Source: Candidatus Micrarchaeota archaeon (GTDB lineage Archaea; Micrarchaeota; Micrarchaeia; Anstonellales; Bilamarchaeaceae). From it: 61,590 nucleotides of DNA. Position numbers and translations under genes: made by a program. The notes beneath the pieces were generated by a model that saw only the letters and a program-made list of their open reading frames with translations, made no database searches and was not told where the DNA came from. Each line of letters starts with the position of its first letter. Position 1 is the first letter of the stretch. The stretch lies in the NCBI GenBank assembly GCA_030648615.1, contig JAUSHJ010000042.1:1-61590 (forward strand). The letters are read 5' to 3'. Shown here piece by piece: positions 5 to 59,832 of the stretch.

Positions 5-559
5 ATGATGACTCACGCAGCACTTAACGAAGCCATTCGTCGTGATTGGAAAAATGTCAAAGAATTCTTACCTGCTAGAACTGCAACTTCTATAAGATAC
101 GAGAAAGGTGCAACCAAGGTAGTGGCATGGAACGAAGACGGAAGTGAAACAAAGATAGATATGCCTCTTAACAATGGTTGGTATGTGCCGGATGGAAACC
201 CATTTAGTATCCCAAATGGCAGGCCAAGTAGCAAAGAAGATTCAAATGCTCTTTACTTATATCGTTATCAAGACAGAAGTTTTAACGGCCCTGTTGGCCT
301 GGCCGACGACCCCGTCGGCGACAGCGGGCGTTTCGTCGGTGCCACCGACAATTGGTCTGATGTTGCTGGGGTGGCGTTGGTTGGTGGTTCAAAAGAACAA
401 GACCTCTCAGTAAACCTTTTAGTAAAAGGAGTTACTCTTGAGGCGTTTAGAGCCTTGGTCGGGGATGCTAATGCAAACTTGGCAGAACTTGCACAGACAT
501 TAAGTCCTGAAAAGCTCGAAGCTTTGACAAGGTTGGCCCAAGCGTTGAAACTTGAGTAG
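5..559 (+). CDS. hypothetical protein, possibly 5'-partial at the window edge
   Basis: Open frame from the window start. Contains a local GC-rich patch at 288-355 encoding a Gly/Asp-rich peptide. Its C-terminal ...KLE tail resembles that of the next ORF. Confidence 0.4.
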   Translation: MMTHAALNEAIRRDWKNVKEFLPARTATSIRYEKGATKVVAWNEDGSETKIDMPLNNGWYVPDGNPFSIPNGRPSSKEDSNALYLYRYQDRSFNGPVGLADDPVGDSGRFVGATDNWSDVAGVALVGGSKEQDLSVNLLVKGVTLEAFRALVGDANANLAELAQTLSPEKLEALTRLAQALKLE

Positions 560-1452: not shown

Positions 1453-1785
1453 CTATCTGTTTTCTAACATTTCTATTAGTTCAGAAGTAGTATAAACTCT
1501 TATTTTATTTTGCTCTTTAAAATGAGGGTCGTTGCTCCAGATATCTATTCTCTTAGCAGTTGCAAGTGCCAATAATGGAAGATCATCTTCATCTGAAATC
1601 TCGTTTTTAACTTTATCTATAAAACCAAAGTATTCTTCTTTTGGTATTATCTCTATTTCAGATCTCAGAAAAACTAGAGTTTTCGCTATAAATTCTTTAT
1701 CTAATCTATATTTGTTAGCTACTTGACCTACATATTCTTCAAGTTCCTCTATTTGATATTCAGTAGTGAATAGATGATTTGCCCA
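1453..1785 (-). pseudogene. 5'-truncated PIN-domain (VapC-like) remnant, paralogue of the 10669-11106 gene
   Basis: The minus-strand frame translates to 'HLFTTEYQIEELEE...IIPKEEYFGFIDKVKNEISDEDDLPLLALATAKRIDIWSNDPHFKEQNKIRVYTTSELIEMLENR'. This is collinear with residues ~29-145 of the intact PIN protein at 10669-11106. There is no start codon: the frame opens immediately after a TAA, and the first ~28 residues, including the N-terminal catalytic Asp, are absent. Confidence 0.6.
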
Positions 1786-1790
1786 TTAGG

Positions 1791-1925
1791 CCACCACAGC
1801 CTAAAGGCTGTGGTTTCATTAGGGCCGACGCGAATGTCGCAAAAGCGACATTGCGCCCATTGTCCAAAGGACAATTGGGAGGGCAAAGTTGTGTAAATTC
1901 GGCACTTCCCCCCAAGGTTAAAACC
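1791..1925. repeat. hairpin-cluster element (family B), copy at the gatD 5' junction
   Basis: Consecutive stem-loops: ccacagcc-taaa-ggctgtgg, aatgtcgc-aaaa-gcgacatt, and cccattgtcc-aaa-ggacaattggg (the CATTG/CAATTG asymmetric stem). Confidence 0.5.
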
Positions 1926-3008
1926 ATGAGTTTCCGTGCCGAATTGACACATGAAATTGCCATACTTGGTTGTGGTGGAACAATTGTAAGTAAAATAGAG
2001 TATAAAACAGGTGCAGTATTCCCTGCGATAGACCCTGAAGAAATAAAAACAGCATTTCCAAAAATAGAAACACTGGCAAAAATAACTACAAAACAAATTT
2101 TTTCTCTTCTTTCTGAAGACATGAACTCTTCCCATTGGTCCATTGCTGGAAAAGCAGTCATGGATAAAATAAGAGAGGGTGTAGAGGGCGTAGTTCTTAT
2201 GCACGGTACCGACACGATGCACTATAGTTCTGCAGCAATGAGCTTTATGATTCAGAATTTACCTATACCGGTTATTTTTGTAGGTTCGCAAAGAAGCAGT
2301 GACAGACCAAGCAGTGATAATGAAACTAATCTGTTAAATGCAGTTTATGCTGCAAAACAAAATTTTGCTGAAGTTGCAATATGTATGCATGCGAATACTA
2401 ACGACGATTATTGTAACCTAATTAGAGGAGTTAATGCAAGAAAATTGCATACATCTAAGAGAGATGCGTTTAAATCGGTAAATTCTCCTCCGCTTGCAAA
2501 AGTCAATTATATCAGCAATACTTTTGAATCTTTAACAGATATGAAAAAACGTGAAAAGAGAACACCTAAAACAGATTTCAAATTCAATGACAATGTCGCC
2601 ATGATATATGTCCATCCAAATATCCAGCCTAAATTCATCTCTAAACTATCTTCTTTTGACGGTATAGTGCTAATGGGTACTGGACTAGGACACGTACCCA
2701 CAAATCCGTTTGGAGATAGAAATGCCAGCCCAGTTATAAAAGAAGTGAAAGAACTTATAAATTCAGATATTCCAGTAGTTATGACACCCCAAACAATATT
2801 CGGAAGAGTCAACATGAATGTTTATACTGCCGGCAGATTGTTGAAAGAAGCAGGAGTGATCGGTGACGGATGTGATTGGACTCCTGAAACAGCTTTTGTA
2901 AAATTAAGCTGGATACTTGGACACACAAAGAAAATAGCCAAGGTAAAGGAAGAAATGCTTACTAACATGATTGGAGAAATCAGTGAGAGGAGTATAGTGG
3001 TTGATTAA
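1926..3008 (+). CDS. gatD: Glu-tRNA(Gln) amidotransferase subunit D (GatD), apparently lacking the usual N-terminal domain
   Basis: Asparaginase-type motifs 'ILGCGGTIVS', 'HGTDTM', 'GSQRSSDRPSSD'. Overlaps the gatE start. The frame is open upstream to a TTG at 1779, but that part is the hairpin element. The first ATG is at 1926, which gives 361 aa. Confidence 0.8.
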   Translation: MSFRAELTHEIAILGCGGTIVSKIEYKTGAVFPAIDPEEIKTAFPKIETLAKITTKQIFSLLSEDMNSSHWSIAGKAVMDKIREGVEGVVLMHGTDTMHYSSAAMSFMIQNLPIPVIFVGSQRSSDRPSSDNETNLLNAVYAAKQNFAEVAICMHANTNDDYCNLIRGVNARKLHTSKRDAFKSVNSPPLAKVNYISNTFESLTDMKKREKRTPKTDFKFNDNVAMIYVHPNIQPKFISKLSSFDGIVLMGTGLGHVPTNPFGDRNASPVIKEVKELINSDIPVVMTPQTIFGRVNMNVYTAGRLLKEAGVIGDGCDWTPETAFVKLSWILGHTKKIAKVKEEMLTNMIGEISERSIVVD

Positions 3009-4794
3009 CATGGTAAAAATAGGAATAGAAATTCATCAACGTATTGATACGAACAAGCTATTCTGCAACTGTTCGTCTACGATTTCAGATAGTGCTATTC
3101 CCAATAGTATAATATCCAGGAAGCTTCACCCCGTACTCAGCGAACTCGGGGAATTCGATAAAGCCGCTCTTGCAGAATATCAAAAAAATAGGATTTACGA
3201 ATACCAGTTATTCGATAAAAACACCTGCTTGGTAGAAACAGATGAAGAACCCCCTCATTCAATGAACAGTGATGCACTCATGATTGCACTCCAGATATCT
3301 ATGCATCTGAACTGCAAACTAGTAGATGAAGTCCACATCATGAGAAAAATGGTCATAGACGGCAGCAATACGTCTGGTTTTCAGAGAACATCTGTAATTG
3401 CCATGGGCGGATATATCGAAACGTCTAAAGGCAAGGTAAGTATAACTCAAATTGCAATAGAAGAAGAAAGCTCAGGTATAGTAGAAAACAAAGAATCAAA
3501 AGTCATTTATCGACTCGATAGATTGGGCATTCCGCTTATAGAAATAACTACTGACCCAGACATAAAAGATGCTCAGCATTTAGTAGAAGTTGCAGAGAAA
3601 ATTGGTTTACTATTAAGAGCTACTGGAAAAGTCGCAAGAGGTTTAGGCACAATAAGACAGGACGTCAACATATCTACAGAAGATGGCGCAAGGGTTGAGA
3701 TAAAGGGAGCCCAAGACTTAAAACTTTTACCAACACTCATGGAAACTGAAGTCAAACGTCAAAAAGAACTAATAAAGATATCCGGTGAGTTGAAAACAAA
3801 ATTTAATGGCAAAATTACAATACAACGAATATTTGTCAATATCACAAATGTTTTTGTCAATACCCAGGCACCAATGGTAAAAAATGGAATAGCTAATGGT
3901 GAAGTAGTTTATGGACTTCGATTGCAGCATTTGAAAGGAATTCTAGGCAGAGAACTTCAACCAAACAAAAGATACGGAACGGAACTAAGTGATTATGCAA
4001 AGACAGCTGGAGTAAAAGGAATAATACATAGCGATGAAACGCTAGAAAAGTATGGATTCGCAGAACAAGAAACGAGCTCGCTTAGGAAAACTCTGAATAT
4101 TGGAGATAATGATGCATTCGTCCTGGTTATTGCGAAAGAAGACGTAGCTAAAAGAGCACTGGAAAACGTTGCAAAAAGATGCGAAATGGATTTCGTTCCT
4201 GAAGAAACCCGGAAAGCAAATCCGGATGGAACTACTAATTATATGAGACCGCTTGCCGGAAAAGCAAGGATGTATCCTGAAACGGATGTCCCCCCTATAG
4301 CAATTGATGCTAAATTACTAAAAGAAGTTAAAGAAAATAAAAGTGAATCGTTAGATGAGAAAAAAGAGAAGCTTGCAAAAATCCTAAACAAAGAAATGGC
4401 AGAATCAATGCTAAGATCGAAGAATTTACAATTATTTGAGAAACTACTTTCATTAGATGTTGATCCTGTACTTATTGCTAATACGCTTGAGAATACAGTG
4501 GTTTCTCTCAGACGGGAAGGCATAGTTATTTCAGATCTTGAAATGGTAATGATTGATTTGTTTACTAATTACAAAAAAGGATTATTTGTAAAAGCTGCAA
4601 TTATAGAAATATTGAAGCACGTAAGCAAAGGAATGCCGGTAGGTGAAGCAGTAGAGAAGAACAATCTCGGAAAACTTTCCGGTGCTGAACTACAGAAAAT
4701 TGCACAGGAAAATAATTTTGATATCGCCAAGATAATGCAGAAATACAGATTGAGAATTGAACCTAGTGATGTGGCAAAGCTGAAGAAAAACTAG
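3001..4794 (+). CDS. gatE: Glu-tRNA(Gln) amidotransferase subunit E (GatE)
   Basis: N-terminus 'MVKIGIEIHQRI' of the GatB/E family, 597 aa. 8-nt overlap with gatD, the classic gatDE operon arrangement. Confidence 0.88.
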   Translation: MINMVKIGIEIHQRIDTNKLFCNCSSTISDSAIPNSIISRKLHPVLSELGEFDKAALAEYQKNRIYEYQLFDKNTCLVETDEEPPHSMNSDALMIALQISMHLNCKLVDEVHIMRKMVIDGSNTSGFQRTSVIAMGGYIETSKGKVSITQIAIEEESSGIVENKESKVIYRLDRLGIPLIEITTDPDIKDAQHLVEVAEKIGLLLRATGKVARGLGTIRQDVNISTEDGARVEIKGAQDLKLLPTLMETEVKRQKELIKISGELKTKFNGKITIQRIFVNITNVFVNTQAPMVKNGIANGEVVYGLRLQHLKGILGRELQPNKRYGTELSDYAKTAGVKGIIHSDETLEKYGFAEQETSSLRKTLNIGDNDAFVLVIAKEDVAKRALENVAKRCEMDFVPEETRKANPDGTTNYMRPLAGKARMYPETDVPPIAIDAKLLKEVKENKSESLDEKKEKLAKILNKEMAESMLRSKNLQLFEKLLSLDVDPVLIANTLENTVVSLRREGIVISDLEMVMIDLFTNYKKGLFVKAAIIEILKHVSKGMPVGEAVEKNNLGKLSGAELQKIAQENNFDIAKIMQKYRLRIEPSDVAKLKKN

Positions 4795-10469: not shown

Positions 10470-10694
10470 ATGACTACTATGACATTGGCTGTTCCTGCCG
10501 AACTTAAACATAAACTTGAGGGATTTCCTGAAATAAACTGGAGCGAAGTCGCAAGACAAGCATTCATACAAAAAATAAGAGATTTGGAATTTCTTAAGCA
10601 ATTCAAGTCTGAAAGCAAAATGACTGAAGACGATGCTTTAAGATTGGGTAGAGAAGTAAGAAAGGGAATTGCAAAGCGAGTCCGAGGAGAGTAA
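10470..10694 (+). CDS. putative antitoxin of the VapBC-like pair
   Basis: 74-aa ORF that overlaps the start of the PIN gene. Basic C-terminus. Confidence 0.45.
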   Translation: MTTMTLAVPAELKHKLEGFPEINWSEVARQAFIQKIRDLEFLKQFKSESKMTEDDALRLGREVRKGIAKRVRGE

Positions 10695-11106
10695 TATGGA
10701 TTTAGTGATAGATGCTAATATCCTATTTGCAATGATCATACGAAAGGGCATTACGGAAAGAATTTTATTTTCAGATAGTTTACATATATATGCACCTGAG
10801 TATATATTTCTGGAATTTAAAGAGCGCAAAGAGTATTTACTAAGCATTACAAGCAGACCAGAAGATGAATTTATAAAATTAATAGAAATTTTGGAACGAA
10901 GAATAGAGCTTATCCCTACTTCTGAATTTAAGCAATTTATAAAAGAAGCTGAGACACTGATATCAGACAAAGATGACGCAGTATATCTTGCAGTTTGTCT
11001 TGCTAAAAAAATGCCACTGTGGACAAATGATAATCATTTTTCTCATCAGAACAAAATAAAGATTTTCACCACACAAGAACTGATAAGATACCTTGAAATA
11101 GAATGA
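10669..11106 (+). CDS. PIN-domain ribonuclease (VapC-like toxin)
   Basis: 'MDLVIDANILF' (Asp4). Acidic residues in 'DDAVYLAVCL' and 'WTNDNHF' are typical of PIN. Confidence 0.65.
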   Translation: MQSESEESNMDLVIDANILFAMIIRKGITERILFSDSLHIYAPEYIFLEFKERKEYLLSITSRPEDEFIKLIEILERRIELIPTSEFKQFIKEAETLISDKDDAVYLAVCLAKKMPLWTNDNHFSHQNKIKIFTTQELIRYLEIE

Positions 11107-12413: not shown

Positions 12414-12482
12414 CTGAAAACGTTTATTTCTTCTAATTTTATTTTTTTAATTAAGTAGTTTTTTTCTTCTTTTATTCTTTTT

Positions 12483-12592
12483 CTATTCTACTGTAAATTC
12501 TATCGATGTTAAAGATTTCTTCTTTAACAGTTGTAAATCATAAAGTAATTTGCTCGAATTTACAACAGGACAAATTCTTCGCAAATTTGTCC
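12483..12592 (+). repeat. MITE-like repeat, copy 1 (family A)
   Basis: Imperfect terminal inverted repeats ctgtaaattctatcga...tcgaatttacaacag. Central hairpin gttaaag-atttctt-ctttaac. Adjacent hairpin ggacaaatt-cttcgca-aatttgtcc. Near-identical copies at 30398 and 59688, and a short one at 22500. Confidence 0.6.
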
Positions 12593-12628
12593 TTTTTATT
12601 ATATTTTATTATTTTTATTTTATCTATT

Positions 12629-21293: not shown

Positions 21294-21473
21294 GCAGGGG
21301 TGGCGGAGCGGTCAAACGCGGCAGACTCAAGATCTCATAAGTTCCTTACTCGAATGTGAGAAAGGAAATCTGTTGGCCTAGCGCCTACACAGGTTCAAAG
21401 ACCACCTTTCTTTTTCCAAAAGAAAGCTAGTCGCACCAAAGAAAAAGGTGGTATGAAAATCCTGTCCCCTGCA
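21294..21473 (+). tRNA. tRNA-Leu(CAA), type II, with two putative introns (canonical 37/38 and one in the T-loop)
   Basis: Acceptor gcagggg/cccctgc (7 WC). Anticodon stem gcaga only pairs with tctgt about 36 nt downstream; loop ctCAAg gives anticodon CAA. T-stem acagg pairs with cctgt only after removing ~60 nt that follow 'ttcaaa'. Long variable arm. Confidence 0.55.
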
Positions 21474-22267: not shown

Positions 22268-22499
22268 ATAATACTATCTCAGAAGTACTATATAAATGTT
22301 ACTATTGATGATGTTTTATGCAGATTTACGGTTATTGCCCCGCCAATAGCCTAACCTCGTTCAGGCCAGCATTTATATAGAACGAGTGTTGGATTTACCT
22401 CGACAAAGAGGGCAAAAAACAAGGTTGCGTCCTCAGAGCTGGTCAGGGGGTTTGCCCCCTGCAAATTTTGTTTACAAAATTGCGGTGCTTTGTTTGTAA

Positions 22500-22553
22500 G
22501 GACAAATTGATAAGAAATTTGTCCTGTTGTAAATTCGATAGAATTTACTATAG
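22500..22553 (-). repeat. MITE-like repeat, short copy (TIRs joined, central part deleted)
   Basis: The reverse complement reads ctatagtaaattctatcgaatttacaacaggacaaatttcttatcaatttgtcc, i.e. the family-A termini without the core. Confidence 0.5.
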
Positions 22554-22670
22554 AAAAACAAATGCCACCTGCAATTTCTTTTTATCAATATAATCTAACA
22601 ATACCCCAGACTCACGACCGAAAACGTTCTAGTGACAACTATTTATTAATTTTCCCATCGTATAACCCTC

Positions 22671-27736: not shown

Positions 27737-27794
27737 GACAAGCTTGTCGCTCAGAGCGACAAGATGTCCATTGTTCGATATGTCGAACAATTGG
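27737..27794. repeat. hairpin element (family B), intergenic copy
   Basis: cttgtcgc-tcaga-gcgacaag, then ccattgttcga-tatg-tcgaacaattgg (asymmetric stem). About 85% identical over 40 nt to the copy inside argS. Confidence 0.55.
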
Positions 27795-29559: not shown

Positions 29560-30150
29560 AACGAGTAATTAAAAGCTTCTGAATACTAAGCATATATGGG
29601 CTAGATTGGGGCCAGGGGTCCCAGCACCGTACATCCCCTTTAGACGGGTCGAAGACCCGGGGCGTTATATAATTCTAAGATGCCTTCTGTTTTAAGCGTC
29701 GATGCTCTGCCTCATATGGCAGTCTTTACGCATCAACCGAGCCAGATCGAAAGAAGCAACTCTAAATGCATAAAACTGTGCTTGTGAGATACAGAGTGGA
29801 GCTGATGGCAGAAGCTCCTTCTTAGTGTTACTATGGCCAACCGGGATGCCCATTTTGAAACAAAATGGGCTGAATTTACTAACAAGTAAATCGGATGCCC
29901 ACTCTACTTATGATAAACTAAGGTTCGTGGACCTTTGACGTGTATTCACGTCAAAATTTGTCACGATTTTTTTGCCCTCGTGACAACCCTTCCTAGTCTT
30001 CAGTTTCGCTTATAGACGGAATTCCAGTCAGTTTGCCCTAAAGGCAAATCCCTCGAGCATAGCTCTCGGTCACTCCGCTATCGCTACGTGACAGCCAACA
30101 CGTATCTGTTCTTTCTTGTAAATCGTCAACTGTCGAAAAAAACTACATAA
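29560..30150. other. ORF-free, hairpin-rich ~600-bp region; candidate structured ncRNA or degraded gene
   Basis: No ORF of 60 aa or more on either strand. GC-rich core at 29595-29660 (ggggccaggggtccc..., cgggtc-gaa-gacccg). Downstream hairpins ttgacgtg-tattc-acgtcaaa, tttgcc-ctaaa-ggcaaa, and the 29-bp IR element. Confidence 0.25.
29958..29987. repeat. 29-bp inverted-repeat element, copy 2 (inverted relative to copy 1)
   Basis: tttgtcacga-tttttttgccc-tcgtgacaa, the exact reverse complement of 24568-24598. Confidence 0.55.
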
Positions 30151-30382: not shown

Positions 30383-30397
30383 TTTTTTTAATTTTTT

Positions 30398-30490
30398 TTA
30401 TTCTACTATAAATTCTATCGATGTTAAAGAATTCTTCTTTAACAGTTGTAAATCGCAAATAGATTTACTCGAATTTACAACAGGACAAAA
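30398..30490 (+). repeat. MITE-like repeat, copy 3 (family A)
   Basis: About 90% identical to 12483-12592 over ~95 nt. Confidence 0.6.
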
Positions 30491-30499
30491 TTTCCCGAC

Positions 30500-30585
30500 A
30501 CGATTGTTGCTCGTGGCAACAATTGCGTGGGCACAATTATTTTCCGCAGAAAATAATGTGCATTGACGCGTTTTCGCGTCAATTG
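30500..30585. repeat. hairpin element (family B-like) appended to MITE copy 3
   Basis: cgattgttgc-tcgt-ggcaacaattgcg, gcacaattatttt-ccgcag-aaaataatgtgc, and cattgacgcg-tttt-cgcgtcaattg. All three show the CATTG/CAATTG one-nt asymmetry. Confidence 0.5.
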
Positions 30586-30645
30586 TATCTTTTTCCTAAT
30601 TGGAAAAAGTTTGTTATCATTTTGTCCTTTTATTATCTTTTTATA

Positions 30646-33625: not shown

Positions 33626-35188
33626 GTGAAATTACCTATTAATATTAAGAACACTAAACAAATGATTTTTTTACTTCTAATAGTATATACTATTACAAGA
33701 CTTTTTATTGTATCTTATGTACCGCTCGTTAAAGATGAAACGATCTATGCCATGATGATAGAAGAACAGGCAGAAAAACCAACGTTAATTACAACATTTT
33801 TAGGCTACGATGTAGGCTGGAAACCACCAGTGTTCTTTTGGATTTATGCTTCTTTTATTAAAATTCTAAAAGTGTTGCCACTACCTCTAGAGCATATTTA
33901 TAGACTACCAACAGTATTTTTTGGAGCTGTAAATGTAGTTCTAGTTTATTTTTTTATAAAAAAATTACATACACCAGAAATTGCTTTTTTGACTGCATTA
34001 ATTTATGAATGCTTATTTCTTACAATTTATACCGATAATTCAGTCTTGACAGATACACTAAACATGACATTTGTTTTTATTAGTCTTTTATTTTACATAA
34101 ACAAGAAACCTACGATGAAAAATTTTATCATCGGCGCAACATTTGCATTTCTAGCGTTCTATGTCAAATTTGCACTTGCATTTATAGTTCCCGTTTTAGT
34201 TATCAGTTATTACTTTTTTAATGATGAAAAATTTGATAAGAAAATTTTTCAGAATTGTAAATTATCAAATTTACAATATGATAAAAAAATATTAAAAAAT
34301 CCAATATTATGGTACTCTTTTATCGCCATACTTTTAGCTCCAGTTATATATTATTCTTTATTTTCTGATAAAAGTTTGACAGAGAACGTATACAATAAAG
34401 ACATTTTGGATAGATTTCTAAGCATACTAGAACCCATAAAAAATATCGACATCGCCAAAAGTTCTTTAATAGGTCTTTTTTTCCTTGTGAGTGTATTTTT
34501 GGTCATTGGAATTGCAGGATTGAAGAACAATTGGAAAAAATATTTATTCTTTGCTTCCTGGTTAAGCCTAATAGCATTTCCAATATTCTCAGGAAATTAT
34601 CTGCCTTGGCATTTCTTACCAATAGCATTGCCATTGGCATTTTTTTCTGCCATAGAATTAAGCTATTATAAAGAAAAATATTTATTCGATAGATTCAGCG
34701 CATTTATTTTAATTTTAATAATAATAGTTAATCTAGCTTTAGGAATGATGTTCTATGATGACCTAAAAAATGGGATTATGCCTGAAAAAAGTGCCGGAGA
34801 ATTCCTTGCGTTTAAACAGAACGTAGCAATAATTGGAGATTATCCCCCCACAATAATAGCATACAAAACACTGAAAGAAAAAAGAAAATTAGGACATATA
34901 CTTGATTATGGCTGGATATTAGGATCTGGACAACAGGATAATGAAAGCTATCAGAAATTAGGCCAAAAATATTTTGAAAATATTAACAATATTGAAAATG
35001 GATCTTTTGCCAAAATGTTTTACGTAGACAATAAAATATTTAGAAAGGATACTAACATCAGCAAATTCGATTACCTGGTGGCCATAGGCTGGAAAAGTAA
35101 AAATGGAAAACTTATTTGGAACAGTACGAACATAAATATTTATGATATTAGTTCAGGAATAAATAAATCAGTTGTATCTTCTCAATAA
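33626..35188 (+). CDS. GT-C fold glycosyltransferase (PMT_2/ArnT-like)
   Basis: More than 11 TM helices. 'LVKDETIYAMM' acidic motif in the first loop. Confidence 0.55.
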   Translation: MKLPINIKNTKQMIFLLLIVYTITRLFIVSYVPLVKDETIYAMMIEEQAEKPTLITTFLGYDVGWKPPVFFWIYASFIKILKVLPLPLEHIYRLPTVFFGAVNVVLVYFFIKKLHTPEIAFLTALIYECLFLTIYTDNSVLTDTLNMTFVFISLLFYINKKPTMKNFIIGATFAFLAFYVKFALAFIVPVLVISYYFFNDEKFDKKIFQNCKLSNLQYDKKILKNPILWYSFIAILLAPVIYYSLFSDKSLTENVYNKDILDRFLSILEPIKNIDIAKSSLIGLFFLVSVFLVIGIAGLKNNWKKYLFFASWLSLIAFPIFSGNYLPWHFLPIALPLAFFSAIELSYYKEKYLFDRFSAFILILIIIVNLALGMMFYDDLKNGIMPEKSAGEFLAFKQNVAIIGDYPPTIIAYKTLKEKRKLGHILDYGWILGSGQQDNESYQKLGQKYFENINNIENGSFAKMFYVDNKIFRKDTNISKFDYLVAIGWKSKNGKLIWNSTNINIYDISSGINKSVVSSQ

Positions 35189-40890: not shown

Positions 40891-42747
40891 ATGCTAACCA
40901 AAATCAAACACCACATAGCTAAAATGCTGGCAGATGCTGCAGATATTAGTGAAGAGAAAACTTTTTCTAGCCTTGAATTACCTAAGAACGAGTTTGGAGA
41001 CCTGACTAGCAAGATTGCATTTGTGCTTGCAAGTGAGCAAAAAAAGAATCCGATGGAGATTGCTAACAGTATCGTTGTGAAACTTCCCAAAGACGAATAC
41101 GTTGCCAAGGTCGAAACTAAAGGTCCATACATAAACTTCTATTTATCTGATAAATTTTACTCTGAACAGGCAAACGAAATAGTAAAATTGAAGGATAAAT
41201 TTGGTATAGGTAAAAAAACAAATAAAAAAGTTATGATAGAATATTTCCATGCAAATACTCACAAGGGCGTGCATATAGGTCACATACGAAACATCTCAAT
41301 AGGAGAAGCATTGGCAAGAACGCTTGAATTTGCAGGTAACAAAGTGATAAGAGCTAATTTTCAAGGAGACATAGGCATGCATGTTGCCAAATGTCTCTGG
41401 GGTTTCATTAATATTTACCATGAAAAAGCTCCAGAAGAAAACCGCGGTGTTTGGTTAGGTAAAGTTTATTCTGAAGCTTCCGGAATGACAAAAGGAAACG
41501 AAGAACTAGAAACCCAGGTCAAAGATATTAACGTCAAGCTTTATACAGGAGATAAGAAACTTACAGCCCTATTGAAAAAAACAAGACAATGGTGTCTTGA
41601 TGATTTTAAAGAATTTTACAAAGAATTTGGAGTAACGTTTGATGAACTTTATTTCGAGAGTGAAACTGAAAAAATAGGGACAAAAATAGTTATGGAAGCA
41701 CTCAAGAAAGGAATAGCAAAGGAAGACCAAGGTGCGATAATAATGGACCTTAAAGATGATGGTCTCGGAGTATACGTACTAATTACTAAAGAAGGCTACC
41801 CGCTCTATTCAACCAAAGATATCGGTCTTGCAAAAATAAAGTTCGACAAATATAAACTTGACAGAAGCATTCATCTCGTTGGAAAAGAACAGGAATTCCA
41901 TTTCATGCAGCTCTTCAAGGCTTTCGAAAAATTAGGCATGGAAAAAGCTGCCAAAGTTTCCTACCACCTCATTTATGATTTAGTTATGCTTCCGGAAGGT
42001 AAAATGTCCTCACGGGAAGGAACGATGGTGCTTTACGAGGATTTGAAGACTAAACTAATGGAACTAACTCGCGTTGAAGTAAAGAAAAGACATGAAGACT
42101 GGGATGCGAAACAAGTAGAAGAAACCGCAAGAAAAATAGCTTTTGCTGCATTGAAGTTTTCCATGGTAAGGAAAGAGAATAACAGGATTATAGTATTTGA
42201 CTGGAATGAAGCATTAAATCTTGAAGGAGATTCTGGACCATACTTACAGTATGCATATGTACGTACTAACGGCATTCTTGAAGGTTATAAAACTTCAAGA
42301 GATGTGGCCAACAAGCTTGTTGTTCAGAGCAACAAGATGTCCACGCAATTGTCGAGCGCGACAATGCGCACATTGTTCGAAACATCGAACAATTGTGTTG
42401 TTGCATTGCAACAATCGGAAGGCCACACCGATATAGAGAAAGCTGGGAAAAAAGAAATAAACGTTAAAGGATATAGTTACACTAATGAAGAGAAAAAACT
42501 CGTTAAACTGCTTTCTGAATTCCCGGAGGTTATTGAGAGGACTGCCAGCCACCTCAGTACAAACACTTTGGCGCAGTATTTGTTAGAAGTAGCATCATTT
42601 TTCAATAAGTTTTATGCATCTTCCCCAGTGCTAAATGCTGAAAAAGAAGATGAAAGAAATGCTAGACTAGAAATAGTAAAGGCAACCAATACCGTATTGA
42701 AGAGTGGACTGAGTTTACTCGGAATAGAATGTCCAGAAAAAATGTAA
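40891..42747 (+). CDS. argS: arginyl-tRNA synthetase, carrying an in-frame hairpin-element insertion
   Basis: HIGH-like 'HANTHKGVHIGHIRN', 'GKMSSREG' (KMSKS), DALR-type C-terminus. 618 aa. Confidence 0.88.
   Translation: MLTKIKHHIAKMLADAADISEEKTFSSLELPKNEFGDLTSKIAFVLASEQKKNPMEIANSIVVKLPKDEYVAKVETKGPYINFYLSDKFYSEQANEIVKLKDKFGIGKKTNKKVMIEYFHANTHKGVHIGHIRNISIGEALARTLEFAGNKVIRANFQGDIGMHVAKCLWGFINIYHEKAPEENRGVWLGKVYSEASGMTKGNEELETQVKDINVKLYTGDKKLTALLKKTRQWCLDDFKEFYKEFGVTFDELYFESETEKIGTKIVMEALKKGIAKEDQGAIIMDLKDDGLGVYVLITKEGYPLYSTKDIGLAKIKFDKYKLDRSIHLVGKEQEFHFMQLFKAFEKLGMEKAAKVSYHLIYDLVMLPEGKMSSREGTMVLYEDLKTKLMELTRVEVKKRHEDWDAKQVEETARKIAFAALKFSMVRKENNRIIVFDWNEALNLEGDSGPYLQYAYVRTNGILEGYKTSRDVANKLVVQSNKMSTQLSSATMRTLFETSNNCVVALQQSEGHTDIEKAGKKEINVKGYSYTNEEKKLVKLLSEFPEVIERTASHLSTNTLAQYLLEVASFFNKFYASSPVLNAEKEDERNARLEIVKATNTVLKSGLSLLGIECPEKM
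42309..42416. repeat. hairpin element (family B) lying in-frame inside argS
   Basis: cttgttgttcagagcaacaag, cgcaattgtcg-agcg-cgacaatgcg, cacattgttcga-aaca-tcgaacaattgtg, and ttgttgcattgcaacaa. Possible TIR-like flanks gatgtggcc / ggccacacc. Confidence 0.5.
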
Positions 42748-46683: not shown

Positions 46684-46775
46684 ATGTTTGTCTGCAAAAT
46701 CCTTGACGCAATTGTCATGCTTGACAATGCACCCATTGTTCGTTGCAACGAACAATTGGGAGTTGCCGCAACTTC
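46684..46775. repeat. hairpin element (family B) apparently inserted into the 3' flank of the lipoprotein paralogue, flanked by AAGT direct repeats
   Basis: gcaattgtca-tgct-tgacaatgc, cccattgttcgttg|caacgaacaattggg, and agttgc-cgcaact. AAGT at 46680-83 and 46776-79. The downstream 'cccttcttcccagct' matches the 3' flank of paralogue 1 at 46222-46236. Confidence 0.55.
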
Positions 46776-54799: not shown

Positions 54800-55183
54800 A
54801 TGATACTACTTGATGCAGATTTCTTGATTGCTTATTTCAGAGAAAATGACCAACAACACAACAGAGCAGTAGAGATAATGAAGAGCGTAAATGAAACTAC
54901 TTTTGTCACTACATCAATTATCAATGAGATTTTTACATATATAAAGGCTAGAGATGGCGGTAAGAAAACCAGAGAAGTTTGGGAATGGATAAAAAATTCA
55001 GACATAGAAATAATTGAAATAAACAGGATAATTGAAGAGATAATATATTATGTAGAAAAATTCGATGGCTTGAGTTTCGGAGATGCGAGCAATATTGCCA
55101 TTATGAAACAACTTGGTATTGAAAGAATTGTTTCCTTCGATTCTGATTTTGATATTATACCTGGAATTCGTAGGATTTACTGA
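54800..55183 (+). CDS. PIN-domain ribonuclease (VapC-like toxin)
   Basis: 'ILLDADFLIAY' (Asp5), 'FGDASNIAI', 'SFDSDF'. Confidence 0.6.
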   Translation: MILLDADFLIAYFRENDQQHNRAVEIMKSVNETTFVTTSIINEIFTYIKARDGGKKTREVWEWIKNSDIEIIEINRIIEEIIYYVEKFDGLSFGDASNIAIMKQLGIERIVSFDSDFDIIPGIRRIY

Positions 55184-57141
55184 GGCTCGTAAGTACATGT
55201 AGTTTCATCAGTGCTAAATGTAAACTGCGCCTTACCTACACGATTTGCAATTAATTGCTGAATGCTTCTAGTATATACTGCTTGCAGAATTGACCCCCTC
55301 TCATTTATGTAACCAGCGTCTATTCCTACAAGATCTAGAGAGGAATCGACTGCACCGTCATTATATGCGAATACAGCTACAAAAGTCTTAGTTGCATCAT
55401 CAGCAATTATTTTTGTAAACGAATATCTGCCAGGATTATTACCACGATGAATAAATCTAGGATCCACATTTGTCGGAACTGTGTTTCCTCCTGATGGCTC
55501 TATGAAAAGAATTTGAAGCATTTGCTGATCGTGGGACAGGAAAATTGCTCCTTCGCCACCACCATTAAGTGAAGCTACAAAAGTATTCGGATTGCTTGGA
55601 AATATTTCTCTGAAAGTGTTATTTCCATCTGCACCAAGTTCTGCAAAAAGACGAAATTCCATGGGCGCATATATCAGATAGTTAGACACTGTTCCGTCAG
55701 GGAAACTTAGGAAATCCCTTGTAATAGAACGTATGCGAACATTGTAGGGAGTCACTATAGTTGTATTAATCGAATTTCCTTCTAACATAATACCAAATGA
55801 ACCATCTTCTATACTACTAGTGACATGGGTATAATCTCCAATATTTTCAGGATTAATATCTAGACCTTCGTAAGTAAAAGAATAACCTTTTCCGTTTCCT
55901 GATTGATCATAACCAACCCATCCGACAAGTGAGCCTGGAAGAAAATCATGTATTGTTGGAGGAGCTACATCTCTTCCGATTGCAACTATTTCTCCATTTT
56001 CATCTATAACAGTCTTGAGACCACTATCACCTGGATTGATGGCAAGTTGATCGATATGAGAAATAATAGCTATGTCTGCTGATTCCACATAAGGAAGAAA
56101 CGTAGTTTGTCCCACATAGTATTGCACTGTTCTTCCGTCTAAAGTAACTACGCTATTAACAGTGTACTCGGGAACTGTAGTTTCTCTTAGCAACTCCCCA
56201 CAACTATCAAATATTTTTAATGCAACTTCCCAATCAGCTCTAACATATTCAAGACTAATGGTAATACCAGTATTTGCACCGTCGTAATTTCCGTCAAGTA
56301 CCTCACTTGAATTTAATTTTCCAGAAACGACTATTTTAGCAAGCATATATGATCGATAATTGGAATCGTAAAGTATTTTTCTATTTTCTCCCATCCATTC
56401 TATTTCTGGTGCTTCTTCTATTTCTGTTTCCGGATGAATAAGTAGAGGTGGCAAAACAATTGCAGAATATGCAAACTGAGCACCTTGTTTCAAAACAATA
56501 GTATCATTTGCATCAGAATAGGCAGTTTCACCTTTCAAAAGCAAATGTTGGTATTCCGTATGAGTAACTCCTGTGGAGGTAGTAAAAGTATAATCAGCAA
56601 ATTCCGGAAGATTATTAACCAAGATAAATGGCGAATCCACACCTAGCAAACCTGAGAGGACTTCAATTTCGCTTCCGTCTTCATAATTACTGCTTCTCAG
56701 TGGAACTCCTATGTAATCGCTTGTTTCAGCAGTGCCAGTAGTAGTTGTATCACATCTTGTAGGTGAATTATAAGAAGTACATAAAATACCACCATCAGCA
56801 GTTGACCCACCGTCTTGTGATGATCCCCCGTCTCGTATCTCATGTCCTGCATCGTTATTGCAGATCGCTTCGCGACAGCCGATGCCACCATCTAATCTTT
56901 CAGAAGGTTCTACTGAAAAAACAGAATTGCGATTTGACAATGTGGTTACAGTTCTTATTGTATCATTGATAGTGCTATTATTTCTAGTTCCAGAATTACT
57001 GTTTTGAACACTAGAATCACCTAGAACGTCAGACTTATCTGTAAGCACGCATCCGTGACTAAAAAAAGCGGTTACCGTAAGTGTTACGGCAGCAATCGTT
57101 CTTCCGACTGTAGTTATTGGTTTAAAATGTAAAGTTTTCAT
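55177..57141 (-). CDS. large secreted or surface lipoprotein (paralogue 1)
   Basis: Signal peptide plus lipobox-like 'FFSHGC'. Low-complexity 'DGGSSQDGGSTADGG'. Many N-x-S/T sequons. Confidence 0.55.
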   Translation of the reverse strand: MKTLHFKPITTVGRTIAAVTLTVTAFFSHGCVLTDKSDVLGDSSVQNSNSGTRNNSTINDTIRTVTTLSNRNSVFSVEPSERLDGGIGCREAICNNDAGHEIRDGGSSQDGGSTADGGILCTSYNSPTRCDTTTTGTAETSDYIGVPLRSSNYEDGSEIEVLSGLLGVDSPFILVNNLPEFADYTFTTSTGVTHTEYQHLLLKGETAYSDANDTIVLKQGAQFAYSAIVLPPLLIHPETEIEEAPEIEWMGENRKILYDSNYRSYMLAKIVVSGKLNSSEVLDGNYDGANTGITISLEYVRADWEVALKIFDSCGELLRETTVPEYTVNSVVTLDGRTVQYYVGQTTFLPYVESADIAIISHIDQLAINPGDSGLKTVIDENGEIVAIGRDVAPPTIHDFLPGSLVGWVGYDQSGNGKGYSFTYEGLDINPENIGDYTHVTSSIEDGSFGIMLEGNSINTTIVTPYNVRIRSITRDFLSFPDGTVSNYLIYAPMEFRLFAELGADGNNTFREIFPSNPNTFVASLNGGGEGAIFLSHDQQMLQILFIEPSGGNTVPTNVDPRFIHRGNNPGRYSFTKIIADDATKTFVAVFAYNDGAVDSSLDLVGIDAGYINERGSILQAVYTRSIQQLIANRVGKAQFTFSTDETTCTYEPQ

Positions 57142-57268
57142 TTTAATCTCTTCAAATTAGTTATAATTAATGTTAATATATAGAAACGTGTTTATAAAGG
57201 AGTATATTGTAAAAAACACAAAAAGAATTGAATTTTTAAGAAGATTACAAAGAAATTTAAAATTAAAA

Positions 57269-59593
57269 TTACCTGCAAATGGGTTCAGTAAGAACCATTT
57301 CTACTTCAGCAGGTCGTCTTGCAACGTGTACAGTGAAACTTGATTCTCCCTTACTAGCTAGTATCGATCCACGATCTGTTACGAAGTTTATTTCTCGCGT
57401 ACCAGAAGAATCCATGAAACTAAGTTCCGGAAGCCCAGAAAATGTTGACACTGGAACATAGTATGCTTTATCTTGAGCATATCTTCCATTGGGACTATCA
57501 CGATTAAGACTTGCATTTGCGATATCATAATTGAATGCTAGAACATCTGCATTTCCTGCTGACAGTCCTTTTCCTGCATCTTCTGAAATAAGAACTACGA
57601 ATGAATTACTTGTCTGTACTTCATTGGTTGCTGAAAAATCAAAACCAATAACATTGTTTAGACCTTGATCACCATAACCAAAAGCGATTACTCCCCCATA
57701 TTCTATAGTGCCACCTTCTCCAGCAGTGAAATAATCTACAGAACCTAATCCGCCTTGATTTACAGAACCTACGTAAGAGTATCTGCCACTATCAAGTTGC
57801 AATAGGACTGTACCTGGTTTAAGTTGAGGACTCTCTGGGAAACCGCTATCTAAAGGATTAGTTTCGAGTGGCACATTTCTATCCTGTCCATTATCAAACA
57901 GTATAACTAATTTACTACCAGTACCTGCCAAAGAAGAAAATGCATCATGGACAGAAGAACGGATTGTAAGATAACTGGATGCATTAACAAATGTAGATAT
58001 TACTGAGCCGTCTGGTCTAAAATTAAACCCACCATGTTCCGAAGTTACGCTTAAAGTATCGTAATCATTAGAATTTGATCTGTCCAAAGTGGTACCAAGA
58101 TAGGTTAAACTGAAGTCAAAAGGATTGCTTAGAATATTGACACCTGAACCAGGAACCATCCAGTCTGTACTAACATTTCTGTAAACTAATATTGATTTTA
58201 GATGATCAACTAAATCTGAACCGAGATCTTTGTTTCTCCAACCAAGAGTAACTATCCAATCCTGATTGTGCTCTCTTTCACCATTAACTTCGATAGTACT
58301 ATCACCATCTCTTAGAGTTATTTGATCGCTTAGAATAGACAGGTCTGCCCATGCCGTAGCTGGATCACCTGGAGAAATTTTGAATGTTCTTATAAGTATC
58401 TGTGTACCGCCATTGTCTAGTGTCAGATTTTGAGTTGAACCTGTTGCAATAGTACTCTGAGCTACTACAACATTAATTGCATCAATCAAGCTAATCGTTG
58501 CACGTATTTCTGAGATTACATCATCTAATCTAACTTTGAAACCGTTACCTGCATCTATTGAACCACCGACATTTACTCTTCCACCTGTGAATTCTTTGGA
58601 CAATTCAACAGAACCACCTGATTTAACCTGTGTTTCGTTATCAACAGTTCCAACTCCAGAAATATCCATTCCGGTAATAAGCCACTTTTCCCCGAGAAAT
58701 ATTACGCCCGCCCTATGATTAGAAGTTGCATTATCGCCAAATGATTCACAATTTGCCCAGCTACCGTTTGCAGAGTTATCACAAACTGGAATACCAAAAG
58801 CATCTGAAGTAAATTTTAATTGATAAATAATATCCCTAAAACGAACAGTTATTTGATCATCAGCATCACGATATGCCGATTCTGCACTAACCCACAAGTT
58901 TTGTTCTTCCTGATATGCGTGTCCTGAAGCATTATCCACAAGAATTACTGAACTAAATGGGACAAAAGAATCTCCAGATATTTTGTATAATGTAGTTGTA
59001 TTCTGTCCGATGTAACCGCCTTGACCATCGCTGAAAGGATTTGCAGTACTACTTGTTTCTGGTGTGGATAGATAATATTCTGACTCTCCGATACCTCGAT
59101 CTTCTAAAGTCCTGTCAACAGTTTCTCCGATGAGGCTTTTTATGCTTACATAACACGTAGGTTGAGGAATACCACCATCAGCAGTTGACCCGCCATCAGT
59201 AATTGGTCCGGCGTCTCCGGTTTCCTGTCCCGCATCTTGTATTGAGCCTGCATCGACAGCTCCACCATCTCGAGTCTCAGGCCCAGAATCTCGCGCTGGT
59301 CCAACATCACTACCACCATCAGTTCCACCGTCTTGAGTTTCGGGTCTTGTGTCTTGAGTCCTGAATCCTGAAAATGGAGCATCGGTAGATGAAGCAATTG
59401 CAACTCCCGCAGAATTATTATTAGTATGATTATTTCCGATCCCCGAATTCCTATCACTAACTTTAGTACCATTAAAATCATCCGGTTTATCATGCAACAC
59501 ACATGCCTGACTAAAAAATACTGTTGCTACTGTGGTTGCGGCAGCGACTGCTCGTTTAACTACGGTGATTGATTTTGAATGTAAAGTTTGCAT
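57269..59593 (-). CDS. large secreted or surface lipoprotein (paralogue 2)
   Basis: N-terminus 'MQTLHSKSITVVKRAVAAATTVATVFFSQAC', homologous to paralogue 1. Tandem 'xETxDGG' repeats. Shared 'GSTADGGI'. Confidence 0.55.
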   Translation of the reverse strand: MQTLHSKSITVVKRAVAAATTVATVFFSQACVLHDKPDDFNGTKVSDRNSGIGNNHTNNNSAGVAIASSTDAPFSGFRTQDTRPETQDGGTDGGSDVGPARDSGPETRDGGAVDAGSIQDAGQETGDAGPITDGGSTADGGIPQPTCYVSIKSLIGETVDRTLEDRGIGESEYYLSTPETSSTANPFSDGQGGYIGQNTTTLYKISGDSFVPFSSVILVDNASGHAYQEEQNLWVSAESAYRDADDQITVRFRDIIYQLKFTSDAFGIPVCDNSANGSWANCESFGDNATSNHRAGVIFLGEKWLITGMDISGVGTVDNETQVKSGGSVELSKEFTGGRVNVGGSIDAGNGFKVRLDDVISEIRATISLIDAINVVVAQSTIATGSTQNLTLDNGGTQILIRTFKISPGDPATAWADLSILSDQITLRDGDSTIEVNGEREHNQDWIVTLGWRNKDLGSDLVDHLKSILVYRNVSTDWMVPGSGVNILSNPFDFSLTYLGTTLDRSNSNDYDTLSVTSEHGGFNFRPDGSVISTFVNASSYLTIRSSVHDAFSSLAGTGSKLVILFDNGQDRNVPLETNPLDSGFPESPQLKPGTVLLQLDSGRYSYVGSVNQGGLGSVDYFTAGEGGTIEYGGVIAFGYGDQGLNNVIGFDFSATNEVQTSNSFVVLISEDAGKGLSAGNADVLAFNYDIANASLNRDSPNGRYAQDKAYYVPVSTFSGLPELSFMDSSGTREINFVTDRGSILASKGESSFTVHVARRPAEVEMVLTEPICR

Positions 59594-59687
59594 TAATTAT
59601 TCCCCTCATATTAGTTATAATTAATGTTATTATGTAGCAATTTATTTATAAATGTACCTATGGATAAGTATAAAAGGATAGTAGGAG

Positions 59688-59790
59688 GACAAATTGATAC
59701 AGAATTTGTACTGTTGTAAATTCGAGTAAATCTATTTTAGATTTACAACTGTTAAAAAAACAAATTTTTTAACATCGATAGAATTTACAG
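59688..59790 (-). repeat. MITE-like repeat, copy 4 (family A, inverted orientation)
   Basis: The reverse complement matches 12483-12592, including the TIRs and central hairpin. Confidence 0.6.
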
Positions 59791-59832
59791 TACAATTAAA
59801 AAATAAAATCAGCCTTCACGCAAGGGACTAAA

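Follow-up and report, generated by a model that had tools for sequence, protein, structure and literature searches.

A complete hairpin repeat between a gatD gene without its N-terminal domain and a PIN toxin-gene remnant in a Micrarchaeota contig

Two truncated genes on either side of a hairpin element

We analyzed a 61,590-nt stretch of DNA from a Candidatus Micrarchaeota archaeon (assembly GCA_030648615.1, contig JAUSHJ010000042.1, positions 1 to 61,590), here called the window; it is a whole contig of a DPANN metagenome-assembled genome. Near its left end, a composite hairpin element lies between the remnant of a PIN-domain toxin gene on the minus strand and, on the plus strand, a gatD gene whose product lacks the N-terminal domain. 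The gatE gene adjoins gatD, and archaea have no route to Gln-tRNA(Gln) other than GatDE (PMC2330236, PMC9499178). The genes and the element at this junction are as follows.

1453 to 1773, minus strand: remnant of a PIN_2 (VapC-like) toxin gene, approximately residues 30 to 136, with the stop codon at 1453-1455
1774 to 1954, plus strand: complete copy of a composite hairpin element, 181 nt, beginning and ending in ATGA (1774-1777 and 1951-1954)
1926 to 3008, plus strand: gatD core open reading frame (ORF), 360 aa from ATG 1926, with both asparaginase domains intact (PF00710 and PF17763)
3010 to 4794, plus strand: gatE, full length, 698.7 bits against the NCBIfam GatE model

The gatD ORF scored 439.8 bits against the NCBIfam equivalog NF003217 (cut-off, 310; model positions 75 to 416 of 420) and 426.1 bits against TIGR02153 (cut-off, 324). 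It is 100% identical to one database protein (P0001, Glu-tRNA(Gln) amidotransferase subunit GatD), which is represented by a single member, on a single contig. The ORF keeps the conserved GGT and HGTDT motifs, the core is 83% identical to that of the nearest relative, and neither the core nor the adjoining gatE shows decay. By its equivalog score and the presence of gatE next to it, the predicted product is GatD, although its N-domain is lacking.

The N-terminal domain is missing by every comparison that we made. Matches to the NCBIfam GatD equivalogs begin at model positions 62 to 75 of 405 to 420, and the solved GatD chains 1zq1 and 2d6f align from residues 93 and 91, respectively. No Pfam match to GatD_N (PF18195, approximately 70 to 90 residues) is present in the ORF or its 49 upstream codons, and tblastn searches with three relatives found no GatD_N anywhere in the 61.6-kb window. 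By comparison, PF18195 is carried by all 119 of the next homologues among the matches listed (83 to 56% identity, 433 to 467 aa). A preliminary description of this DNA had proposed that the gatD frame has no recognizable N-terminal domain, and these results bear that out: the start in close relatives is not at the equivalent position, and all 119 listed keep the domain. The N-domain reportedly contacts GatE in the GatDE structures of P. abyssi and M. thermautotrophicus; a literature search on the role of GatD_N found nothing.

The position at which native gatD sequence begins was the same by protein and by DNA. In tblastn, homology to the three relatives begins at their residues 87 to 94, which correspond to window positions 1950 to 1956, and DNA alignment with the same relatives gives the same boundary. 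Native sequence opens with EIAILGCGGTI (approximately 1953 to 1960), a motif that is common to many relatives as GEIAILGCGG. Since ATG 1926 lies inside a hairpin of the element, the first 8 to 9 gatD codons, reading MSFRAELTH, are element sequence. The NCBI annotation starts gatD at TTG 1779, giving 409 aa, and that start also falls within the element.

On the other side of the element, the minus-strand frame 1456-1785 matches Pfam PIN_2 (PF10130) at profile positions 28 to 116 of 133 with 45.2 bits, above the gathering score of 22.4 bits. It translates as WANHLFTTEYQIEELEEY...ENR between two stop codons, of which TAA 1786-1788 bounds the frame at its start side. The WAN codons that open the frame are hairpin-element sequence and not gene, and the earliest ATG, GTG, or TTG is the TTG at 1572, with no usable start before it. 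Aligned to an intact paralogue in the window (10696-11106; 41% identity), the remnant is without MDLVIDANILFAMIIRKGITERILFSDSL, approximately 29 N-terminal residues that include the first catalytic Asp of VIDAN. The truncation of this gene and the loss of its start had been noted before and are confirmed here. Upstream of the remnant are the hairpin element and gatD, with no cognate antitoxin gene. The remnant resembles VapBC-type modules (ribbon-helix-helix [RHH] antitoxin plus PIN toxin) in belonging to PIN_2 and in having an intact paralogue behind an RHH-like ORF, but it differs from them in that the active-site Asp, the start codon, and the antitoxin are all lost. Because of these three losses, the remnant is a pseudogene and not a functional toxin module.

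A second copy defines the ends of the element

The preliminary description had placed a 135-nt family-B hairpin cluster exactly between the two genes. Both truncations do lie exactly at the element's edges, but the element measures 181 nt (1774-1954). We scanned public collections with the pattern of the conserved family-B module and obtained L005, a contig of a Micrarchaeota metagenome-assembled genome (MAG), and L008 and L009, both from metagenome ORJL01, which is also the source of the closest gatD relative, L001. The extent of the element was set by the L008 copy, in which both ends recur. By blastn, the window element is 98.7% identical to the L008 copy over 78 nt (1825-1902), matches it at 14 of 14 positions at the left end (1774-1787), and matches it at 14 of 15 at the right end. 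The L008 minus strand carries ATGATTTGCCCATT ... CCGACGCGAATGTCGCAAcAGCGACATTGCGCCCATTGTCCAAAGGACAATTGGGAGGGCAAAGTTGTGTAAATTCGG gtgt CGAATTGACAtATGA. This copy is intergenic, between two co-directional genes, and has the direct repeat ATATGAT at both ends.

The 98.7% identity of the element core contrasts with the 72.4% identity of the gatDE DNA between the window and L001, which indicates a mobile or strongly constrained repeat. The segment 1774-1954 is one complete copy of a repeated and probably mobile composite hairpin element. Other copies in the window are only 66 to 81% like it. No terminal inverted repeats were apparent in the element, and the repeats at its ends (ATGA here, ATATGAT in L008) may either have arisen by duplication of the target or belong to the element itself.

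Structurally, a 7-bp closing stem, TTTGCCC (1778-1784) with GGGCAAA (1881-1887), surrounds three hairpins, and a fourth hairpin follows it.

1793 to 1814, plus strand: hairpin H1, a perfect 10-bp stem, within an insert of approximately 33 nt that the L008 copy does not have
1830 to 1879, plus strand: hairpins H2 (1833-1840/1845-1852) and H3 (1856-1865/1869-1878), the conserved two-hairpin module of family B
1890 to 1951, plus strand: hairpin H4 (GTTGTAAATTCG...CGAATTTACAAC, family-A type), whose 16-bp stem (1890-1905/1936-1951) is 94% complementary

The RNA fold of 1774-1954 has a predicted energy of -84.6 kcal/mol (z = -7.85), and 0 of 200 shuffled sequences folded as well; the L008 copy folds with the same topology (z = -5.64). 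The family-B pattern, GACAWTGCRCMCATTGT-N5-20-ACAATTG, occurs 3 times in the window versus 0 expected, and in an alignment of seven copies of the module, TGTC/GACA and CATTGT/ACAATTG are invariant. The 30-nt loop of H4 corresponds to an insert of approximately 33 to 36 nt that is missing from the L008 copy. It holds a Shine-Dalgarno (SD)-like AAGGT (1914-1918), followed after 7 nt by the in-frame ATG 1926, and the right arm of H4 codes for gatD codons 4 to 9. This arrangement of AAGGT and ATG is similar to other ribosome-binding sites of the contig, for example gaAGGTcaaatcATG at 50402.

Separately, we observed that a 7-nt direct repeat, CATTAGG (1784-1790 and 1817-1823), borders the H1 mini-hairpin, and the region 1784-1823 has the appearance of an insertion nested in the element. 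A reading of the element as a known RNA gene was ruled out, with no tRNA and no Rfam family above threshold.

Modular hairpin clusters were also found at 12478-12596, 22464-22564, 27741-27793, 29848-29955, 30393-30609, 46706-46758, and 59686-59802 of the window, at 6670-6860 of L005, and at 690-950 of L009. They mix family-A units (AGGACAAATT..., TTGTAAATTCGA...) with family-B units (..ATTGTCG.., CCATTGTYCG..). Those in the window are mostly intergenic, between convergent, divergent, and co-directional genes, and such clusters are common to at least two other Micrarchaeota data sets. An AT-rich two-hairpin family-A module lies at 34225-34290, inside an ORF for a PMT_2-family membrane protein (33626-35188).

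Collinearity with relatives ends at the element

We compared the gene order around gatD with that of three relatives, L001, L002 (with a 9.3-kb ENA contig), and L003. In each, a co-directional gene for a protein of approximately 987 aa ends 7 to 10 nt before a full-length gatD. The protein has no Pfam match, no homologue of it was found in the window by tblastn, and the two ORFs at the left end of the window (5-559 and 642-1430) are unrelated to it. Rightward from the junction, the window is collinear with L003 over 11 kb (1956 to approximately 13063) in the order gatD core, gatE, RFC, DEAD_2 helicase, 284-aa gene, TrmB, Metallophos, S26e-like, DUF1805, and 177-aa gene, the sole extra being the intact RHH-like ORF/PIN_2 pair. 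This collinearity ends at the right edge of the element.

The preliminary description had also asked which promoter drives gatDE, and the question is a fair one. In the relatives, a conserved box lies approximately 20 to 32 nt before the gatD ATG, in the 3' end of the 987-aa gene (GTAAAAATTTATAA in L001 and L002, GTAAAAATATATAAA in L003), and this box is lost in the window. Many genes of the contig have a TATA box of the local consensus TTTATAAA or TTTATATA at approximately -22 to -35, but none of this consensus occurs within 60 nt of ATG 1926 or TTG 1779. The nearest look-alike upstream of gatD is CTATAAAT at 1686-1693.

These comparisons bear on how the two genes came to face each other. The earlier proposal was that a rearrangement or insertion truncated two divergent genes. 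Both genes are indeed cut at the element's edges, and to that extent the proposal stands; if a vapBC-like pair and gatD had been divergent neighbors, one insertion with a local deletion might have clipped both 5' ends, leaving the two truncations against the hairpin cluster as they are. We consider this history very improbable. In the three relatives gatD is preceded not by a PIN gene but by the co-directional 987-aa gene, the 3' end of which contains the gatD TATA box, and the element has both of its native ends with ATGA at each. Moreover, a simple insertion duplicates one target; it does not delete approximately 90 codons on one side and approximately 29 codons plus an antitoxin on the other. 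Since a single insertion cannot yield this pattern, the scenario as literally proposed is unlikely.

A related hairpin cluster is tolerated in frame within an essential gene

Another copy of the family-B module lies within a coding sequence.

42300 to 42430, plus strand: family-B hairpin cluster in the ORF of arginyl-tRNA synthetase (ArgRS; 40891-42747), between the catalytic and DALR domains

The Pfam catalytic domain of this ArgRS extends to aa 438 and the DALR domain starts at aa 517, with the frame open throughout, and the insert amounts to approximately 43 extra residues compared with P. horikoshii ArgRS (2zue). The frame of the ArgRS copy reads ...SSATMRTLFETSNN... and that of the gatD copy ...AKATLRPLSKGQLG..., that is, in the same phase of the conserved module, with ..ATMRTLF.. 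in the former against ..ATLRPLS.. in the latter. The in-frame ArgRS copy shows that this genome tolerates hairpin elements within essential genes. The gatD frame is likewise open across the whole element, and if ATGA is taken as a 4-nt duplication of the target, the segment 1778-1954 makes up 59 codons (177 nt). The length of the GatD linker is highly variable among relatives, so an in-frame insert there is plausible.

The element resembles the Rickettsia palindromic elements (RPE), which insert in frame into unrelated housekeeping genes (PMC10969869). Both are hairpin repeats of approximately 100 to 180 nt with a stop-free frame, found both in frame within genes and between genes; the genic cases here are ArgRS and probably the gatD linker, and the resemblance is functional only. 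Unlike RPE, the present element has an archaeal host, a micrarchaeote, and is a mosaic of small hairpins with a closing stem. With repetitive extragenic palindromic sequences and bacterial interspersed mosaic elements (REP/BIME) and with MITEs (miniature transposable elements with inverted repeats), it shares clustered short palindromes that are mostly intergenic or between the genes of operons, modular, and nested. Repeats of these types are hotspots for homologous recombination and rearrangement (PMC10969869, PMC3733652). It differs from REP/BIME in that no RAYT/TnpA-like gene turned up here, although none was searched for, and from MITEs in having no terminal inverted repeats of the MITE type, its end repeats being only ATGA in the window and ATATGAT in L008.

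A naturally split gatD in another lineage

A gatD that is split in nature was found at 6001-7241 of L006 (JGI Ga0314843_0000005, a 430-kb contig). Here, a 68-aa GatD_N ORF and a 345-aa core ORF beginning MKKVSILGTGG overlap in ATGA, in which the TGA stop of the first and the ATG start of the second are combined. As in the window, the core ORF starts at the domain boundary, 3 residues before VSILGTGG. The locus differs from the window in that GatD_N is immediately upstream, there is no hairpin element, the lineage is another one (49% identity), and gatE is not adjacent. L006 came from a protein-database search with the N-domain of the closest relative, which returned 32 candidates and missed the query's own parent. 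When the 68-aa GatD_N was used as the query against representatives, many short matches were obtained, among which contig-end fragments are indistinguishable from stand-alone genes.

The junction has the form of an exchange between two element copies

Because the element is complete at both ends, its flanks would be half-sites of two different insertions, and because its ends and core recur in L008, each flank stops at an element boundary, as exchange between copies predicts. A complete repeat between the halves of two unrelated genes is, as we read it, the signature of exchange between two repeat copies. The sequence by itself would be compatible with an exchange in the cell or in the assembler.

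The explanation that we favor, and to which we give about an even chance, is that the assembler made the connection, as a chimeric join through the repeat near the contig end. One insertion of the element would have disrupted a PIN_2 toxin gene after approximately codon 29. A second would have entered the variable gatD linker, immediately ahead of the asparaginase core and in that frame of the element which has no stops, much as a related copy entered ArgRS. The contig would then join the PIN-side half-site to the gatD-side half-site in silico, through the element that they share. Driven by the usual gatD promoter, the organism's real gene would consist of GatD_N, the element, and the GatD core, and a PIN pseudogene split by another element copy would lie at another place in its genome. 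Only 1.8 kb separates the join from the left end of the contig, which raises the possibility of an assembly chimera; repeat-mediated mis-joins are typical near contig ends. The end of collinearity at the element edge, the in-frame copy tolerated in ArgRS, the absence of the relatives' promoter box, and the dependence of archaeal Gln-tRNA(Gln) on GatDE also speak for this reading. Since GatD_N is kept in the 119 listed homologues and also in the split version, a real loss of the domain would be strongly selected against, whereas an assembler takes no account of fitness. Repeat-induced chimeric joins in short-read metagenome assemblies offer the same combination of a complete repeat, flanks that are not syntenic, nearness to a contig end, and a truncation that would be costly.

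Several points weigh against this putative chimera. The other copies in the window, which an assembler might have confused with the one at the junction, are only 66 to 81% similar to it, and no visible break marks the assembly at ten further hairpin clusters of the contig. The combination of AAGGT and, 7 nt later, an in-frame ATG, in an H4-loop insert that is absent from L008, would suit a stand-alone core gene, and in L006 a GatD core with this N-terminal boundary does occur naturally as an ORF of its own.

If instead the join is real, homologous recombination between inverted copies, one in the gatD linker and one in the PIN gene, would have inverted or translocated at least 59 kb and split gatD. 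This course of events is possible but short of probable. The coding sequence of the N-domain would now lie at another place, behind its former promoter, and the core would be translated from the element's SD-like sequence and ATG 1926 and assemble with GatE. After an inversion, the reciprocal junction (GatD_N, element, antisense PIN_N and antitoxin) would lie at least 59 kb away, outside the window. A complete element with unrelated flanks fits exchange in vivo as well as it fits a chimera, and MITE-like repeats are known recombination hotspots (PMC10969869). Also in keeping with a split are the ribosome-binding-site-like AAGGT and ATG in the H4 loop, the intact core ORF with its motifs and its identity to the nearest relative, and the two ORFs of L006 with their shared boundary. 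Several representatives of 67 to 70 aa consist of GatD_N only, although contig-end fragments are possible among them.

The Nanoarchaeota provide a precedent. Their Glu-tRNA(Gln) amidotransferase is split between the non-contiguous genes NEQ245 and NEQ396 (PMC3655853, Table 1), which, like gatD here, belong to a DPANN host, encode an essential translation-related function, and show that the pieces may lie far apart (PMC3655853). The present case differs in that the N-terminal piece was not found in the window and the split is putative.

No repeat is known at the Nanoarchaeota split sites. On the other side, the window has no GatD_N ORF in its 61.6 kb and no recognizable promoter upstream of the core. 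The start signals could have arisen by chance: an SD with an in-frame open ATG was obtained in 6.6% of shuffled elements and an open frame in 12.9%, each within chance. Breaks within an essential gene are rarely viable from the start, as this one would have to be, and nearness to the contig end favors an artefact. The junction was seen in no independent assembly, P0001 being a single-contig protein, and a 36-mer across the ATG/element junction had no match in the JGI metagenomes, which neither supports nor contradicts the join. That the contig is correct, with an in-frame-tolerated hairpin element as the recombination substrate that split gatD and donated the ribosome-binding site, the start, and the first 8 to 9 codons, is a tentative proposal that we regard as somewhat unlikely.

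A real deletion between direct copies would leave the same junction geometry. It would have removed PIN_N, the antitoxin, the intervening genes, and GatD_N, leaving either a GatD that works without its N-domain or, in a symbiont or minority genotype, a newly formed pseudogene. Such a deletion agrees with the finding of neither GatD_N nor a homologue of the 987-aa gene in the window, and DPANN genomes are reductive (PMC3655853, PMC6349945). We nonetheless judge it improbable. GatDE is the only route to archaeal Gln-tRNA(Gln), as cited above, all 119 of the next-best homologues among the matches listed have GatD_N, as does even the split version, and gatE and the gatD core are without decay.

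Consequences of a real and of an artefactual join

If the join is real, it would provide a mechanism for the birth of split essential genes in reduced DPANN genomes, through hairpin repeats that are tolerated in frame. The GatD core would be expressible apart from its N-domain, and the locus would be a new DPANN example of a split gene in which the repeat responsible still marks the breakpoint. An artefactual join would be an ordinary mis-join induced by a repeat and would illustrate how such elements can mislead assemblers and annotators, as with the 409-aa GatD that starts inside the element. The status of the join also bears on how the completeness and metabolism of this MAG are read. The element family merits a study of its own in either case, given the in-frame insertion in ArgRS and a core that is 98.7% identical between contigs of two data sets.

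The intact PIN_2 pair and further features of the window

The intact paralogue of the PIN remnant lies within the block that is otherwise collinear with L003.

10470 to 11106, plus strand: intact paralogous pair, an RHH-like 74-aa ORF (10470-10694) followed by a full-length PIN_2 gene (10696-11106)

The PIN_2 gene covers the full profile. The 74-aa ORF reads like an RHH antitoxin and had zero Pfam or PHROG matches. Relative to the gene order of L003, the pair is an insertion between TrmB and the Metallophos gene. The nearest PIN homologue elsewhere has 70 aa only and is itself downstream of an RHH_12 gene.

Left of the remnant, ORFs 5-559 and 642-1430 were tested for virus or defense origin and for paralogy, and they had no Pfam or PHROG match and no significant similarity. 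GC-rich palindromic patches at 269-384 (62% GC) and 1229-1308 (57% GC) lie in frame within these two ORFs and may be further in-frame repeat insertions.

We made four further observations in the window. Positions 21295-21335 (GCAGGGGTGGCGGAGCGGTCAAACGCGGCAGACTCAAGATC) resemble the 5' part of tRNA-Leu(CAA), with no 3' acceptor strand nearby and no ARAGORN or Rfam call. A GC-rich block with local stems occupies 22300-22470, between divergent genes and just upstream of a hairpin cluster, and had no Rfam match at E <= 0.1. The signal recognition particle RNA was found at 29596-29853 through the bacterial large-SRP Rfam model (75.9 bits), the sole match at the gathering score, with hairpins directly after it. 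Finally, 57083-57198 and 59535-59652 are duplicated start and leader/promoter regions (72 to 82% identity) of the minus-strand genes 55177-57141 and 57269-59593, which suggests that these two genes may form a tandem paralogue pair.

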